From IMG/VR virus record IMGVR_UViG_3300025389_001063: DNA of 64,000 bases; one strand, given 5' to 3'. This stretch comes from a virus. Taxonomy: Duplodnaviria; Caudoviricetes. The notes below the pieces were generated by a model that did no database searches, had not been told where the DNA came from, and worked only from the letters and a program-made list of their open reading frames with translations. This document shows positions 38,631-53,518 of this stretch, piece by piece (the first letter of the stretch is position 1; each line of letters opens with the position of its first letter). The translations under genes and the position numbers were made by a program.

Positions 38631-39374
38631 ATGACACAGAGAAACAGAAAAGAATATAGATCAATCTTTATCTCAGATGTACATTTAGGTACAAAATACG
38701 CCAACGCCGAATTACTCCTAGAATTTCTAAAAGATACAAGAGCCGAAAGATACTATCTAATCGGTGATATTATTGATGGTTGGTCTATGAAGAAGAAAGT
38801 GTACTGGCCACAAGCACATAATAACATAGTACAATACTTTCTAAAACTATCCAAAAACGATCACAAGGTTTTTTACATAACAGGTAATCACGATGAGTTC
38901 TTAAGAGAATACGGTGGAACCACAATGGGAAATATTCATCTTGTAAATGAATGTATCCATCACGGTGAGAATGGAAAAAGATATCTAGTTATCCATGGTG
39001 ACCAATTTGATCTTGTTACCACTAACGCTAAATGGTTAGTTCATATCGGCAGTTGGGCATATGATTGTATGATTGAACTTAATACAAAATTACAATGGCT
39101 TTATAGAACTTTGGATATTAAAGGTTTCTCATTAAGTGCTTGGGCAAAGCATAGTGTTAAAGAAGCAGTAAACTTTATTGGTGATTACGAAGATGTTGTT
39201 TCAGACTATGCTGCTAAAAAATGTGTTGACGGAGTTATATGTGGTCACATACATTTTTGTAATATCAAAGAGATGAACGGCATACAATATATGAATACAG
39301 GTGACTGGGTAGAATCATGTACTGCTATAGTTGAACATCACAATGGAAAGTTTGAGTTGTTGAGGTTCTTATGA
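38631..39374 (+). CDS. plcP: PlcP-type metallophosphoesterase (LpxH2/phospholipase C family)
   Basis: YRSIFISDVHLG, GDIIDGW, GNHDE (His rather than the LpxH Arg), IHGD.FD, CGHIH, N.GDWVES; adjacent to GT4. Confidence 0.75.
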   Translation: MTQRNRKEYRSIFISDVHLGTKYANAELLLEFLKDTRAERYYLIGDIIDGWSMKKKVYWPQAHNNIVQYFLKLSKNDHKVFYITGNHDEFLREYGGTTMGNIHLVNECIHHGENGKRYLVIHGDQFDLVTTNAKWLVHIGSWAYDCMIELNTKLQWLYRTLDIKGFSLSAWAKHSVKEAVNFIGDYEDVVSDYAAKKCVDGVICGHIHFCNIKEMNGIQYMNTGDWVESCTAIVEHHNGKFELLRFL

Positions 39375-40087
39375 GTAATTTAGAAAAAAATTATCGCAAG
39401 ATTTATGAAAATCATCATGGTTCTATCCCAAAAGGCTATCATATTCATCACAAGGATGGAAATCATCTAAACAATCATATAGATAACTTACAATGCGTAT
39501 CAGTACAAGATCATTTTAATATTCATTTCTCTCAAGGAGACTGGGGTGCTTGTTATGCTTTATTCAAAACAGGGCATATGACATTAACTCCAGAGCAGAG
39601 ATCAGATATTGCTAGTCGCCGCGAAAAGAAAAAAGTAGAAGATAAAGAACATATTTTTCTTAATCCAGAATTTGTTGCTATGGTTGCCGAAATAAATAGC
39701 AAAAGATTACAAGAATTAGCAAAAGAAGGTAAACATCCGGCACAATTAGAAAAAAATAGAAAAAAGTTATCCGAAAGAAATTCAAAAACACAAAGCGACT
39801 TATCTAAAAAAGGAAAACACGTTTTCCAAAAAAAGGAACATCGTGAAAAACTTTCTAAAATAGTTAGCGAATCTAATAAAAGACGAGCAACTGGAACTAA
39901 CTGGTGGAATAATGGACAGAAAAATAAACAATCAAAGGAATGTCCAGGCAATGGTTGGACCATTGGGAGGTTAGAGGTTAGTGGCTCTAAAGGATTCAAA
40001 TGGTGGAATAATGGAATTAATAATGTTTTTACAAAAACTTTCCCAGGCAATGACTGGGTATCAGGAAGAATAAAAGAGGATAAATGA
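39371..40087 (+). mobile_element. free-standing HNH homing endonuclease with two WWNNG repeats
   Basis: HIHHKDGNHLNNHIDNL...H...H; inserted between plcP and the GT4 gene with 4-nt overlaps. Confidence 0.85.
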
Positions 40088-41091
40088 TGAAAATTGTTAT
40101 TTTTTCAGATGCTTCGAGTAAGAATCAAATAAATGGCGTAAAATATACAATTGAACAAACTAAAAAATGTCTTGAATTAAGAGGTTATACTGTTACAATA
40201 ATTGGACCAGATGACTATAAGGTTACAGTTCCTCTTCAACCTTCAACTGGTATCTATATGCCAATATTTCCTCTTGGTCTTGTTGAAGATGCACTCGAGG
40301 ACGCAGATTATATTCATATAGCGACGGAGGGATCAATTGGACTTGCTGCCAGATACGCCTGTAAAAAACAAAAAAAGAAATATACTACAAGTTTTCATAC
40401 TAAATTTCCAGACTACCTTTATGAACATGCTTATATTCCACCCAGAGTTACTGGTCGGTATTTTCGTTGGTTTCATCGAAACAGCAGTTCTGTTCTCGTT
40501 ACAAACGCCGCCATGGTTAACTATTGTTCTAAACTGGGCATCAAACACCTAACAATCTGGTCAAGGGGTGTTGATACAAATCTATTCAAACCAGATCCTA
40601 ATTTTAAGAGACAAGGATCTGCTATTCGTGCTGTCTACGTTGGTAGAGTTAGTGCCGAAAAGAATCTAGAAGCATTTCTCAAAATAGAAAATCCTAATAT
40701 CATAAAATATGTCATTGGTGACGGACCACAATTAGATTCCTATAAAGTATTATATCCTGATGCTTTTTTTCTTGGTAAGAAGACACATGAAGAAATTGCT
40801 AAATTATTACAAACAATGGATGTCTTTGCTTGGCCTTCGCTAACGGATACATTTGGACTTGTTGTATTGGAGGCTATGGCTTGTGGATTACCTGTTGCTG
40901 GATTCGATAATGAAGTTAATCGTTACCTTATTGAAGATGGTATTTCTGGATCATTAATGAAATTTGATCTTGAAGAAGGTATATTAGCATCTTTTCAATG
41001 CTTGAAGAAAGAAGATGCTATCGCTCGTGCCCAAAAGTTTTCCTGGGACGCAGCAACAGATCAATTTGTTGACAATCTAGTTAAGTCTTGA
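40084..41091 (+). CDS. GT4 glycosyltransferase, Agt/MGDG-glucuronosyl-DAG synthase-like
   Basis: QINGV, IHIATEG.IG, TTSFHTKFP.Y, WSRGVD..LF, YVGRVS.EKN, VGDGP-like, PS.TDTFGLV.LEAMACGLPV. Confidence 0.85.
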   Translation: MMKIVIFSDASSKNQINGVKYTIEQTKKCLELRGYTVTIIGPDDYKVTVPLQPSTGIYMPIFPLGLVEDALEDADYIHIATEGSIGLAARYACKKQKKKYTTSFHTKFPDYLYEHAYIPPRVTGRYFRWFHRNSSSVLVTNAAMVNYCSKLGIKHLTIWSRGVDTNLFKPDPNFKRQGSAIRAVYVGRVSAEKNLEAFLKIENPNIIKYVIGDGPQLDSYKVLYPDAFFLGKKTHEEIAKLLQTMDVFAWPSLTDTFGLVVLEAMACGLPVAGFDNEVNRYLIEDGISGSLMKFDLEEGILASFQCLKKEDAIARAQKFSWDAATDQFVDNLVKS

Positions 41092-41121
41092 CATAGTTCT
41101 TAAAGGTGTTATTATAACACT

Positions 41122-41751
41122 ATGAGATATCAGTTTCCAAAGATTGAGCATATTAACGATGTGCTACCCGCTATTCAGGACTCTCCCGAATTTATTGTGG
41201 CGGAGCGTGAATACTTCACTGTGATTAACTATTTGGTTTCACATCCGGAGACCTTTCCCGAAGTGGACGAATCTCCCGAATTAGAATATGATCTGATCGC
41301 AAAGCGTAACGCTATCCGTCGTGAATGCCGCGGACTTATCTTCTGTAAGACTACCGGTAAGATACTTCGGAGACCGTTTTCCAAATTCTTTAATATTGGA
41401 GAGCGAGACGAAACCCAACTTCATTTGTTAGACTTCACTGGTTCGCACGAGGTCTTTACCAAGGAAGACGGTTCTATGGTAACTCCATTTGAAGTTGGTT
41501 TTGGTTCCGGTGTAATCCGTTGGGCGACAAAGATGGGATTATCGGATGTGGCTCTGAACGCAGAAGTGTTTGTGGCAGAAAATCCAAAGTATCAAGAGTT
41601 TGCCAAATGGTGTATTGCCAATCGGCTAACTCCTATATTTGAATGGGTAAGCCGCAAGAATAGAATTGTTCTCGACTATCCCGAGGATAATCTTATTCTT
41701 CTTGCTGTTCGGCATATGGAGACGGGAGAATATCTTCCTTTGAAGGTATAG
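41122..41751 (+). CDS. rnlA: T4 Rnl1-like RNA ligase, N-terminal fragment
   Basis: ECRGLIF, KFFNIGE, motif I KEDGS, TPIFEW, LILLAVR; ends in TAG at 41749-41751. Confidence 0.85.
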   Translation: MRYQFPKIEHINDVLPAIQDSPEFIVAEREYFTVINYLVSHPETFPEVDESPELEYDLIAKRNAIRRECRGLIFCKTTGKILRRPFSKFFNIGERDETQLHLLDFTGSHEVFTKEDGSMVTPFEVGFGSGVIRWATKMGLSDVALNAEVFVAENPKYQEFAKWCIANRLTPIFEWVSRKNRIVLDYPEDNLILLAVRHMETGEYLPLKV

Positions 41752-42451
41752 ATCCTAAATACTTCTCTATTGATGCTAAAGACAAACAGGTTCTTCTTTT
41801 GATTAACTCTTTGTTTTTAGCATCATTAAATGTTTCTTCAGTAAGTTTATCATAATGTATATAAAACTTTTGTAAGAACTTAATACATCTACCTTTTATA
41901 AGATTTTTCTTTCGGTCCTCATTAAACTTTATACCTGTTTGACCTAATGAAATTTTGCGGCGATCTTCCTCTGTTCTTTTAGATCCTTTCCATAAGGACC
42001 GCAATTTAGAACGAGTTTCTTCGGAAACAATTCTACCTGTATTTCTTATTATTAGTGCTTCACGGACATGCTCAGGTCGAGGTTTTCCCTTATAACGATC
42101 TTTAGCCATACTCGCATGTTCTTCTTTAATTGCTGTATATAATTTTGAATTAAGTTTTGTAGGCCATCTATTACTCGTTGACATTCTTTTATACGCACAT
42201 AACATTCTATATTTCGGATCACCGATAACCATTCTTGTTAATAATAGATGACAAATATAATGTTCTCTACAAGTAAGAAGAACGAGATTATCTTTAGAAT
42301 TACTTCCTCCTAAAGATTTTGGAAAAATATGATGAGATTCTAAAGTGCCATCGAACTTTTTGGATCTATTTTCGGATTTGGCTTTCTCAATAATGGCAAG
42401 ATACCAATTTGTATATTTGTTTGTGAGAAAATATGTGCTATAAATATTCAT
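41693..42451 (-). mobile_element. HNH/NUMOD3 homing endonuclease inserted antisense into the RNA ligase gene
   Basis: NKYT.WY..II; HHIFPKSLGG.N..DNLV.LT.REH..CH.LL; NUMOD3-like repeats. Confidence 0.88.
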
Positions 42452-42518
42452 GCTGTTGCTCCTATAAAGCGATAGAGTAGTTGGGAACGCCAATTCCGTG
42501 AACTACACTCTTATTTAT
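42452..42518 (-). repeat. conserved structured 5' leader of HNH gene, copy 1
   Basis: 55/67 identical to 53452-53518; TAAATA, hairpin, RBS. Confidence 0.85.
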
Positions 42519-42576
42519 TCTCCTAACAGGTTGACTGCTTTAGATATGATGCTATTATACATTATAGGAGATTGTC

Positions 42577-43239
42577 ATGGACTTAATCAATCAACTTTTG
42601 GAACGCATTAAAACTTTGGACATCCCTGTTGTGGCAACACACGACCCTGTTGTTGATCCAAAGGCTTTTATGGATTATGTCCGCGACCTTAAGGATGCTG
42701 AAGGATTTGTTATTGCGTGGCCTTCCGGATACCGCGTAAAAACTAAAGCAGCAGATTACCTCCGCCTCCATAAAGTTAAGGACTCGCTCAGTCAGGAAAA
42801 GAATGTTATCGAAATGCTTATTAGCGAATCAATCGATGACGCTAAACCTTTCATGAGTGCCGAAGATCGTAAGAGAGTAGAGGAGTTTGAAGATGGATTT
42901 TGGCAGAATGTTGAATATTCTGCTAAAGAGTTTGAATCTTACTTTAATAGATTATCTATTGATCGTAAGACTTGGTCTCTAGAACATATGAAAGATATGA
43001 ACGCGAAGAATCCATTTTCTTCAAACATTGTGTTCAACTTGTACAATGGTAAAAGTGCTCTCGATACAATCATTGAGATCATTACTAAAAACTTATCAAC
43101 TCAAACTCAAGTAGATAAAGTCCGCTGCCTTTGGGGTGGACTTTATTGGAATTATTCCTTTGGTGAAGAACAACAAAAAGTTGCCTCTGGCTTCTTTGGC
43201 AAGTGGGCTGAACATAAACATGTGGAGCAATTACAATGA
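42577..43239 (+). CDS. rnlA: T4 Rnl1-like RNA ligase, C-terminal fragment
   Basis: motif IV EGFVI, motif V RVKTK..Y...H; own promoter TTGACT 42531 / TATTAT 42553 and GGAG RBS. Confidence 0.8.
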   Translation: MDLINQLLERIKTLDIPVVATHDPVVDPKAFMDYVRDLKDAEGFVIAWPSGYRVKTKAADYLRLHKVKDSLSQEKNVIEMLISESIDDAKPFMSAEDRKRVEEFEDGFWQNVEYSAKEFESYFNRLSIDRKTWSLEHMKDMNAKNPFSSNIVFNLYNGKSALDTIIEIITKNLSTQTQVDKVRCLWGGLYWNYSFGEEQQKVASGFFGKWAEHKHVEQLQ

Positions 43240-43253
43240 TGAAGGAGAATAGA

Positions 43254-43670
43254 ATGCGTAAGATACTTTTAACAACTGCTGTTATCGCAGCACTTGCTAT
43301 TCCTGCTGCAACACCTGCCGATGCTTGGTGGCGAGGTGGTGGTTGGGGTTATGGCGGCGGCTGGGGCGGCTACGGAATGGGTTACGGTGGTTGGGGTTAC
43401 GGAGGCTATGGAATGGGGATGATGGGCGCTGCTGCTGGTGGAGCATTACTTGGTGGTATCGTTGGTGGTGCTATTGCTGCTCAAGCTGCTCGTCCAGTTT
43501 ATGCTGCTCCTGCTCCAGTTTATGCTGCTCCTGCTCCGGTAGTAGTTGAACAACCTGCAACAGTAGTAGTTGAACAACCTGCCCCTGTAGTTGTTGTAAA
43601 ACGTAGATGTCAAATTATGCAAGAATGGGATGCATTAGAAGGCTATGTTTACAAAAAGGTATGTCTATGA
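43254..43670 (+). CDS. secreted Gly/Pro-rich protein with glycine zipper and Cys pair (Rhizobiales-type)
   Basis: signal peptide; GWGYGG repeats; GALLGGIVGGAIA; PVYAAPA x2; C...WD...GYV...C. Confidence 0.75.
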   Translation: MRKILLTTAVIAALAIPAATPADAWWRGGGWGYGGGWGGYGMGYGGWGYGGYGMGMMGAAAGGALLGGIVGGAIAAQAARPVYAAPAPVYAAPAPVVVEQPATVVVEQPAPVVVVKRRCQIMQEWDALEGYVYKKVCL

Positions 43671-43764
43671 TTACTGATATAATTTATGGAATGATATATC
43701 TAGGTGAGATTGTAGCAGTCTTCACTGTTATAATCTCAATCTACTCAATCTTTAAGGGAAACAA

Positions 43765-43908
43765 ATGAGTGCATGGCTTATAGCAGTAACGGGAACAATC
43801 TATGCCGTAGTGGCAATTGAACAATTTTTAAAAGGCAATATGTCTATGACTATAGTTTATAGTGGATATGCCTTTAGCAATATTGGACTTTATCTTCTGG
43901 CTAAGTAG
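43765..43908 (+). CDS. small conserved membrane protein (47 aa, not in track)
   Basis: MSAWLIAVTGTIYAVVAIEQF.KG...Y.GYAFSNIGL. Confidence 0.6.
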   Translation: MSAWLIAVTGTIYAVVAIEQFLKGNMSMTIVYSGYAFSNIGLYLLAK

Positions 43909-43956
43909 TTGACACAGTTATTACAAGTGTTATTATATACTACAGGAGACAGACAG

Positions 43957-44397
43957 ATGACTAAGGTAATTGTGTTCGATATTGACGGAACATTAGCCGA
44001 TATGGAACACCGTAGACAATGGTTTGACGGTGGAAAAAAGAACTGGAATGCGTTCTTTGCTGCTCAGCATTTGGATCCAACACACGAAGATATTGTTTGG
44101 ATGCTGAATCAGTTTCACCAGAGTGGTAATACAATTCTTATCTGTACTGGACGTAACGAAGGACACAGAGAAATATCTGAAGAGTGGTTAACAAAGAACA
44201 ACATCGAGTACGATAAGATGTATATGCGTCCACTTAACGATTTCCGTCAAGATGGCGTTGTTAAAGTTGATCTGTTAGCAAAAATCCGAGAAGAATACGG
44301 TGAACCTTGGTTGTGGATTGATGATCGCAAACAGGTTGTGGATGCTATTCGTGCTGAAGGAGTTCGTGTTCTTCAAGTTTGTGAGGGCGATTATTAA
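43957..44397 (+). CDS. HAD-family polynucleotide 3'-phosphatase (PNKP phosphatase domain)
   Basis: DIDGTLAD, ICTGR, MR...D.R.D..VK, IDDRKQVV. Confidence 0.85.
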   Translation: MTKVIVFDIDGTLADMEHRRQWFDGGKKNWNAFFAAQHLDPTHEDIVWMLNQFHQSGNTILICTGRNEGHREISEEWLTKNNIEYDKMYMRPLNDFRQDGVVKVDLLAKIREEYGEPWLWIDDRKQVVDAIRAEGVRVLQVCEGDY

Positions 44398-52859: not shown

Positions 52860-53450
52860 CTATGCTTGTAAATCTTTTTTTCTATTCTTTGCTGCCAAAC
52901 TTAATTTTTCTCGGTGTTCATCACTAAAAGTTATTCCTTTTCTTGATTCTGATATTTTCTTCTTTGTTTCTTCAGACCTTTTACTTCCTTTAACTGCTCC
53001 GCCTACTATATTAGTCTTAGATGCTAGACTCATTTTCTGCTTTGTTTCTTTTGATACTATTTTTCCTTTATGGGCTCTACTTATAGCCTCTCTATGTTGA
53101 TCAGTTCTTCCAATAAGTTTATGTGCTTCAGAAAGTTGTATTCGTAGAATTTCAAACATTCTTGAGCACGGAACATATCTATCCATTGATTTAGTTTTTC
53201 TGTTCATCATAGAATTTAAGGCAAATATCATCTTACTTTTATTTTTATCAGATGTTATTCTAACTAATAACAAATGGCATATAAAGTGTTCTCTTGCGGT
53301 TAAGACAGCAAGATTATCTGCGTCATTTGTTCCGCCTAATGATCTTGGAATGATATGATGTTTTTCTTTATACCCTTCTAACTTTCGGGTCTTTGCTCTA
53401 TTACAAATGTCTTGATAAATTTTGAGATATTTGTTATCAATAAATATCAT
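52860..53450 (-). mobile_element. HNH/NUMOD3 homing endonuclease
   Basis: NKY..IY; EKHHIIPRSLGG.N..DNL..LT.REH..CH.LL; SKETK/SEETK repeats. Confidence 0.88.
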
Positions 53451-53451
53451 T

Positions 53452-53518
53452 GCTGTTGCCCCTTGTAAGCAATAGAGTAGTTGGGAATTGGCGTTCCGTG
53501 AACTACACTCATATTTAT
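53452..53518 (-). repeat. conserved structured 5' leader of HNH gene, copy 2
   Basis: homolog of 42452-42518 with the 6-nt loop reverse-complemented. Confidence 0.85.

Follow-up and report, generated by a model that had tools for sequence, protein, structure and literature searches.

Can an RNA ligase still seal RNA after an endonuclease gene has cut its own gene in two? This question is raised by positions 41122-43239 of a 64,000-nucleotide stretch of DNA (hereafter the window, that is, the whole of the stretch analysed) from a virus of the Caudoviricetes (Duplodnaviria; IMG/VR record IMGVR_UViG_3300025389_001063), in which rnlA, the gene of a T4 RNA ligase 1 (Rnl1)-type enzyme, is present as two open reading frames (ORFs), here called the N-half and the C-half, with an HNH endonuclease gene lying antisense between them. 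We suggest, at a probability of roughly three in four, that the halves are separately expressed and make up a functional two-subunit tRNA-repair ligase. Comparative support for a working two-piece enzyme comes from the recurrence of the split in other phages, its persistence after loss of the endonuclease, ratios of non-synonymous to synonymous substitution (dN/dS) of 0.04-0.18 and the conservation of catalytic residues. Searches within the window cover these 64 kb rather than the whole phage genome.

Two complementary halves of one ligase

The N-half matches positions 1-153 of 227 of Pfam RNA_lig_T4_1 (PF09511; E 2.5e-23) and positions 32-194 of 377 of phrog_562 (E 8.8e-43), and the C-half matches T4_Rnl1_C (PF20819; E 1.2e-8, which exceeds the curated cut-off) and positions 209-366 of phrog_562 (E 2.7e-25), so that the two are complementary and non-overlapping on the latter profile. 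Motif I (KEDGS) occupies N-half residues 114-118, with K114 as the lysine nucleophile, and motifs IV (EGFVI) and V (RVKTK) occupy C-half residues 42-46 and 53-57. The ligase ORFs are separated by 825 nt containing the antisense gene, and the motifs are distributed over two polypeptides. The 3' end of the HNH ORF is antisense to that of the N-half and overlaps it by 59 nt, and a spacer (42452-42576) lies between the HNH start codon and the C-half ATG.

Much of this had been claimed in an earlier note on the same DNA. Its placement of motifs I, III and IIIa in the first ORF and of IV and V in the second agrees with the ORFs and alignments; its statement that both halves are intact fits the complementary profile matches, with no ligase segment lost; its estimate of ~125 nt of non-HNH sequence between the halves proved to be exactly 125 nt; and the antisense HNH gene that it saw splitting the ligase gene is free-standing and matches PF01844 (above cut-off) and the homing endonuclease family phrog_655 (E 2.6e-41). 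The TTGACT/TATTAT promoter and GGAG that it assigned to the C-half are both present as sequence signals. Comparison with uninterrupted homologues, which it had proposed as a check, found relatives that are mostly single ORFs of 370-430 aa and a seamless break, with zero residues lost and ~7 extra at the junction.

The position of the break

We aligned the halves with the intact ligases of Synechococcus phage B23, Roseobacter phage DSS3P8 and Caulobacter phage Cr30. Homology of the N-half runs through G-E-Y-L-P (~41739), and its final three codons (LKV) and stop, which have no equivalent in the intact ligases, are probably insertion-derived; homology of the C-half resumes ~15 residues ahead of a conserved I-P-V-V. 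Against T4 Rnl1, N-half residues 67-205 align to chain positions 52-191 and C-half residues 26-170 to positions 212-360, which places the cut at ~T4 residue 191, well within the adenylyltransferase domain. The break is therefore not at a domain border, and the predicted active site is shared between two polypeptides: K114-E-D-G-S of the N-half aligns to T4 K99-E-D-G-S, its R70 and K88-F89 (invariant in stand-alone N-halves) align to the Rnl1-specific T4 residues R54 and K75/F76, and E42-G43 and K55-x-K57 of the C-half align to T4 EGYV and KIK (the roles and ATP contacts of the Rnl1 motifs and N-terminal residues are reviewed in PMC6379707). When P0015, an unsplit relative, is modelled with AlphaFold2 (pLDDT 96), the break falls between strand 191-192, which forms a beta-hairpin with strand 177-185 on the N-terminal side, and a short helix at 194-197. 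On this model, the C-half would supply the last two strands of the nucleotide-binding sheets.

Separate expression signals

The motif TTGACW-N16-18-TATTAT occurs at 15 sites in the window against 0.23 expected by chance (including 571, 8161, 33996, 35097, 41088, 42531 and 43909), and TGn often precedes the -10 box. The N-half and the C-half each lie behind a copy and so share one promoter class (Table 1), which is sigma-70-like and presumably early. In related split loci (L007, L022 and L029), an equivalent TTGACA...TAT(T/A)(A/C)(T/A) box and GGAG stand upstream of the C-half. All C-halves open with a start codon (ATG; GTG in L029), with GGAG upstream in four DNA-confirmed lineages. The spacing of the N-half promoter from its ATG would give a leaderless or near-leaderless mRNA.

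Recurrence of the split in other phages

Seven further clusters of ~200-aa stand-alone proteins with the same start point (P0002-5, P0007, P0009 and P0010; 36-82% identity) came up when the C-half was the query. The N-half, searched exhaustively, gave five representative clusters of ~205-211 aa whose ends lie 3-5 residues past G-E/N-Y/F, amid hundreds of full-length proteins of 370-430 aa. Several candidates were rejected as split forms: the gene of P0011 is cut by a contig end (L030), P0012 includes upstream N-half sequence, and P0044 and P0127 are truncated fragments. A megablast of 41000-43300 against the phage collection gave no match and an IMG/VR scan with the single N-half protein gave distant relatives only; split loci as DNA were supplied by an alignment-based IMG/VR scan using the C-halves.

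The content of the gap differs among these loci. L007 and L008 carry an antisense HNH gene with NUMOD3, 58% identical to the window HNH across its first 84 residues; L022 carries an antisense GIY-YIG gene; L034 carries an antisense LEM-3-like GIY-YIG gene; and L029 carries an antisense ORF with helix-turn-helix domains that is GIY-YIG-like by eye only. In L023 and L024 there is no endonuclease, only a 61-nt spacer retaining the last ~45 nt of an L022-type endonuclease gene, and the L023 junction has zero extra residues. L023-type sequence was assembled in four metagenomes, and the identical allele in contigs L085 and L086 marks it as a circulating genotype rather than an assembly error; a metagenome scan gave only more L023-type copies and one unsplit fragment.

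L034 has a second GIY-YIG-like gene (L034 3029-3595, antisense) just upstream of its N-half and, beyond that gene, a stray copy of the first 30 ligase codons (L034 2931-3020; 53% identical). This region (L034 2931-3595) has the appearance of a further endonuclease insertion, close to where the gene begins, that was accompanied by duplication of an exon fragment.

Selection, and what the halves may be doing

Several points weigh against a working two-subunit ligase. An intact ligase may lie elsewhere in the genome, outside the 64-kb window. The closest relatives of the window halves (P0002, 82%; P0003, 73%) are known as proteins only, so that dN/dS comes from sister lineages rather than from the window's own branch. 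The AlphaFold model is that of an unsplit relative and is silent on the affinity between two fragments, and the junction is without the long tails, derived from the insertion, that the split NrdA of Aeromonas phage Aeh1 needs in order to assemble (PMC3045599). A rival reading takes the two ORFs for dead remnants of an endonuclease-inactivated ligase gene, still open only on account of a recent insertion. A non-essential gene is normally inactivated when a selfish element enters it, and the C-half has an odd C-terminal extension of ~20 residues compared with its relatives.

We nevertheless regard dead remnants as unlikely, given that the split is old and widespread. All three members of the L022 clade are split, which makes the split older than a divergence with saturated synonymous change, yet both halves remain under constraint. 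With the Nei-Gojobori method and pairs drawn from sister lineages, dN/dS was 0.156 for the N-half and 0.145 for the C-half between L022 and L029, and 0.043 and 0.183 between L023, which is without the endonuclease, and L029; between L007 and L008 it was 0.135 (N-half, where dS is only 0.016) and 0.160 (C-half, dS 0.60). Across 11 stand-alone N-halves, R70, K88-F-F-N, K114-x-D-G-S, K137 and E174 are invariant (positions equivalent to T4 R54, K75/F76, K99, D101, G102, K119 and E159), and the catalytic residues are kept in nearly all C-halves (12 sequences: K55 and K57 invariant, E42 and G43 kept in at least 90%). Both ORFs are still intact in L023 after endonuclease loss, and in four lineages the C-half has kept a promoter of its own together with a ribosome-binding site and ATG.

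Purifying selection alone is blind to which function is kept, and both halves could be functional with the ligase activity lost (for example, a tRNA-binding C-half, which holds the complete tRNA-specificity domain, and an ATP-binding N-half with another role). We consider this just as improbable as decay, because the invariant residues are the catalytic ones of a ligase (that is, the motif I lysine in the N-half, and E-G of motif IV and K-x-K of motif V in the C-half), the residues of the two halves matter only when gathered around one ATP (contacts in PMC6379707), and both halves are in one promoter class.

Least credible of all, and in our view very nearly dismissed, is that the halves are rejoined as RNA or protein by a group I or II intron that hosts an antisense ORF, by a split intein or through ribosomal bypassing of the gene-60 type: phage endonuclease genes do frequently reside in introns or inteins and the two window halves share a reading frame (starts at 41122 and 42577, 1455 nt apart), but Rfam searches found no intron family in 40500-44000 (E up to 1) or in five related split loci (gathering score), the halves are in different frames in L023, L007, L029 and L034, every C-half has its own start codon (with GGAG as above), and N-halves stop 3-6 residues past the last homologous residue and C-halves begin inside homologous sequence, which leaves no space for intein fragments. 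The earlier note was thus right that the non-endonuclease sequence in the gap offers too little room for a group I intron core, the whole gap in L023 being 61 nt.

Table 1 Features of the split ligase locus and of related genes in the window
Feature	Positions	Strand	Remarks
rnlA N-half ORF	41122-41751	+	209 aa; front of T4 Rnl1-type RNA ligase; motifs I, III, IIIa and N-terminal sub-domain
rnlA C-half ORF	42577-43239	+	220 aa; last ~55 nucleotidyltransferase residues (motifs IV, V), then all-helical tRNA-specificity domain
HNH endonuclease ORF	41693-42451	-	252 aa; ATG at 42451; free-standing, predicted MobE-type homing endonuclease
N-half promoter	41088-41115	+	TTGACA-N16-TATTAT; ends 6 nt ahead of N-half ATG
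C-half promoter	42531-42558	+	TTGACT-N16-TATTAT; same motif class as N-half promoter
C-half ribosome-binding site	42567-42570	+	GGAG; followed by ATG at 42577
Endonuclease leader	42459-42519	-	promoter-like box, hairpin, ribosome-binding site
Late-promoter-like box	42512-42519	-	AATAAATA; one mismatch to TATAAATA
Leader hairpin	42477-42506	-	
HNH ribosome-binding site	42459-42463	-	AGGAG; 7 nt upstream of HNH ATG
Second HNH gene	52860-53450		36% identical to HNH of the ligase locus
Leader twin	53451-53518	-	ahead of second HNH gene; box exactly TATAAATA
Further homing endonuclease gene	39371-40087	+	HNH_3, E 4.4e-14
Glycosyltransferase gene	40084-41091		
Stand-alone P-loop kinase gene	33119-33580	+	AAA_33; 38.6% identical (E 1e-31) to its homologue in phage DSS3P8
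Pnkp phosphatase-domain gene	43954-44397	+	PF25109 HAD_PNKP, E 4.4e-29; own promoter 43909-43936
Gene overlapping C-half stop	43236-43670	+	144 aa; matched to no family

The endonuclease and its leader

The HNH product resembles the MobE genes annotated in phiM12 and phiN3, two Sinorhizobium phages, at 40-43% identity, and by these matches it is a MobE-type homing endonuclease. Its gene stands behind a leader whose box differs at one position from TATAAATA, the T4 late-promoter box consensus. The second HNH gene of the window has a twin of this leader, and the 6-nt hairpin loop is inverted between the two (CGCCAA versus TTGGCG on the plus strand). The leader is also found ahead of endonuclease genes at L007 4874-4948, L022 1436-1512 and L029 4859-4932; its parts are a (T/A)ATAAATA box, a hairpin in two sections and a ribosome-binding site, and it precedes both HNH and GIY-YIG genes. 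Pairing of the hairpin is well conserved (98% of cells pair, compensatory changes occur in 6 of 10 pairs, and the value was never reached in 500 shuffles), and the hairpin might serve in mRNA stabilisation or timing control. The spacers of the window, L007, L022 and L029 (118-128 nt) have a common layout, in which the minus strand holds the leader hairpin and ATAAATA box and the plus strand holds the promoter box, GGAG and start codon of the C-half.

Between the window HNH and the L022 enzyme there is a modest match (E 4e-4), the last 17-19 residues of which are forced by conserved ligase sequence on the opposite strand. A C-terminal module common to the window HNH and the L034 GIY-YIG enzyme, seen by eye, was not significant (E ~11) and was rejected. 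The window has a further homing endonuclease gene directly upstream of a glycosyltransferase gene, which gives three endonuclease genes within ~14 kb.

Spread and origins of the split allele

In a maximum-likelihood tree, the split forms occupy at least three positions, and the AU test rejects a single split clade (log-likelihood difference 236.7, p 4e-51). We do not accept this as proof of many independent splits, the sequences being recombinant mosaics. The clearest case is L007, the protein of which is 77% identical to unsplit L011 at the N-terminus and 95-100% at the C-terminus with only ~36% around the junction, whereas its identity to the window is 75-80% centrally and falls to 31-36% at the C-terminus. 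Compared as DNA, L007 and L011 agree at 83-94% of positions in flanking genes and at 68% over the N-half, and are unalignable over L007 4186-5165. This pattern is the signature of homing with asymmetric co-conversion, and by these comparisons L007 is a mosaic in which a window-like donor tract of ~1.5 kb (endonuclease and split junction) was copied into an L011-like phage. L007 and L008 (3650-6002), in turn, are ~99% identical in the N-half and HNH gene (dS ~0.02), with dS 0.60 in the C-half; identity gives way to divergence ~100 codons into the C-half, where a second recombination edge of the cassette must lie.

L034 differs from the loci above. Its similarity to unsplit L035 (62% identity; SH-aLRT 100) holds steady across the junction, its nuclease has no relationship to the other gap nucleases, and its spacer is only 22 nt and is without the shared leader. 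We interpret L034 as a separate insertion event in the same loop, which would mean at least two origins of the split plus horizontal spread. On these sequences, the split is a mobile, recurrent allele and is not unique to the window phage.

RNA-repair genes and neighbours

The window also encodes candidate end-healing activities. The product of the phosphatase gene, ~700 nt downstream of the ligase, shares 40% identity with gp099 of Roseobacter phage DSS3P8, a 'polynucleotide kinase', and would be an end-healing partner of the ligase. In the same phage, a homologue of the kinase gene follows immediately after the intact RNA ligase gene; in the window, the kinase and phosphatase genes are ~10 kb apart. 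Ligase, separate kinase and phosphatase together are, as predicted from sequence, a complete RNA healing-and-sealing set. The presence of these partners in the window, where the search gave no second Rnl1 copy, speaks for a working two-piece ligase.

The C-half runs ~20 residues (43170-43239) past the common end of its relatives, which lies after W-N-Y-x-F-x-G-D, and this extension may reflect a lost stop codon. Its stop is overlapped (ATGATG) by the start of the next gene, the product of which has a signal-peptide-like start, GGWGYGG repeats and PXPV-like repeats.

Proposed model for the split

Combining these observations, we propose that a ~840-bp mobile cassette was inserted after the G-E-Y-L-P codons (~T4 residue 191), in the link between a beta-hairpin and a small helix. 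The cassette consists of the antisense MobE-type HNH gene with its late-type promoter and hairpin leader, and also brings an outward-facing early-type promoter, GGAG and ATG, such that it would close the first frame after three extra codons and restart expression of the second half. The halves would be made separately from the same promoter class, and activity would require their non-covalent reassembly, in which the C-half strands with motifs IV and V may complete the beta-sheets of the N-half and so rebuild one active site. The reassembled ligase could then seal broken tRNA alongside the phage's separate kinase and phosphatase.

Relation to known systems

The closest parallel is the 'genes in pieces' arrangement nrdA-a / mobE / nrdA-b of Aeromonas phage Aeh1 (Friedrich et al. 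2007, as cited in PMC2988022), a precedent that the earlier note had drawn on correctly, the window HNH itself being MobE-like. In both cases a conserved enzyme gene is interrupted, in a region critical for catalysis, by a free-standing HNH gene of the MobE family rather than by an intron or intein, so that two separate polypeptides result. The host gene, however, encodes ribonucleotide reductase in Aeh1 and an Rnl1 RNA ligase here, and here the endonuclease gene is antisense to it. Assembly of Aeh1 NrdA needs the insertion-derived tails (Crona et al. 2011, PMC3045599), whereas the junction here has ~7 extra residues; the split here recurs with different nuclease families and outlives the endonuclease; and activity of the split enzyme was demonstrated for Aeh1, whereas the present case is known from its sequences.

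Two cistrons likewise meet at an endonuclease insertion site in T4 gene 39/60 with mobA and in gene 43A/43B of Aeromonas phages 25 and 44RR, and in 44RR gene 43 is split without an endonuclease in the gap, as in L023 (PMC2988022). The genes there encode topoisomerase and DNA polymerase, and the present set adds direct sequence evidence that co-conversion moved the split allele from phage to phage (the L007 mosaic). In the split-intein 'fractured genes' (Dassa et al. 2009, PMC2677866), a free-standing endonuclease gene likewise stands between two pieces of a host gene, but here there are no intein halves, hence no protein trans-splicing, and any reassembly would be non-covalent. T4 RNA ligase 1 (RnlA/gp63; PDB 2C5U, 5TT6) is of the same family and shares all nucleotidyltransferase motifs, the N-terminal sub-domain and the tRNA-specificity domain. 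It is one chain of 374 aa, whereas the window enzyme is cut at ~residue 191; as in T4, healing kinase and phosphatase partners are encoded near the ligase, but the two are one Pnkp protein in T4 and separate genes here.

A 2010 review of mobile DNA in T4-like phages lists only three endonuclease-split genes (Aeh1 nrdA/mobE, T4 39/60/mobA and phage 25 gene 43), and only Aeh1 NrdA is reported there as a working split enzyme (PMC2988022). Full-text literature searches found no published description of a split Rnl1, and our reading is that it is a new host gene for a known phenomenon. What is unusual is the antisense cassette with its own promoter, the recurrence at one loop of the catalytic domain and the persistence of the split after nuclease loss.

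Implications

For the ligase family, the locus is a demanding test case, a nucleotidyltransferase active site laid out over two chains, one of which carries the lysine nucleophile and the other motifs IV and V. Should the halves reassemble with no docking tails to help them, nature would have provided a split site in an enzyme family much used in the laboratory. For annotation, it matters that such halves are otherwise scored as fragments or pseudogenes. The comparative data trace a full cycle at one site, that is, insertion, spread by co-conversion, exchange of the nuclease, its loss and a permanent two-piece gene, and so bring the evolutionary question within reach of a direct test. A broader interpretation, for which we consider the odds to be even, is that the nuclease is exchangeable (HNH or GIY-YIG behind the same leader) and is outlasted by the split, and that homing and co-conversion carry a cassette that offsets its own damage, since along with a stop it provides an outward early promoter, ribosome-binding site and start codon, such that the ligase survives as two subunits. 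Homing endonucleases would then be a recurrent natural cause of enzyme gene fission, and the Rnl1 loop a naturally validated split site.

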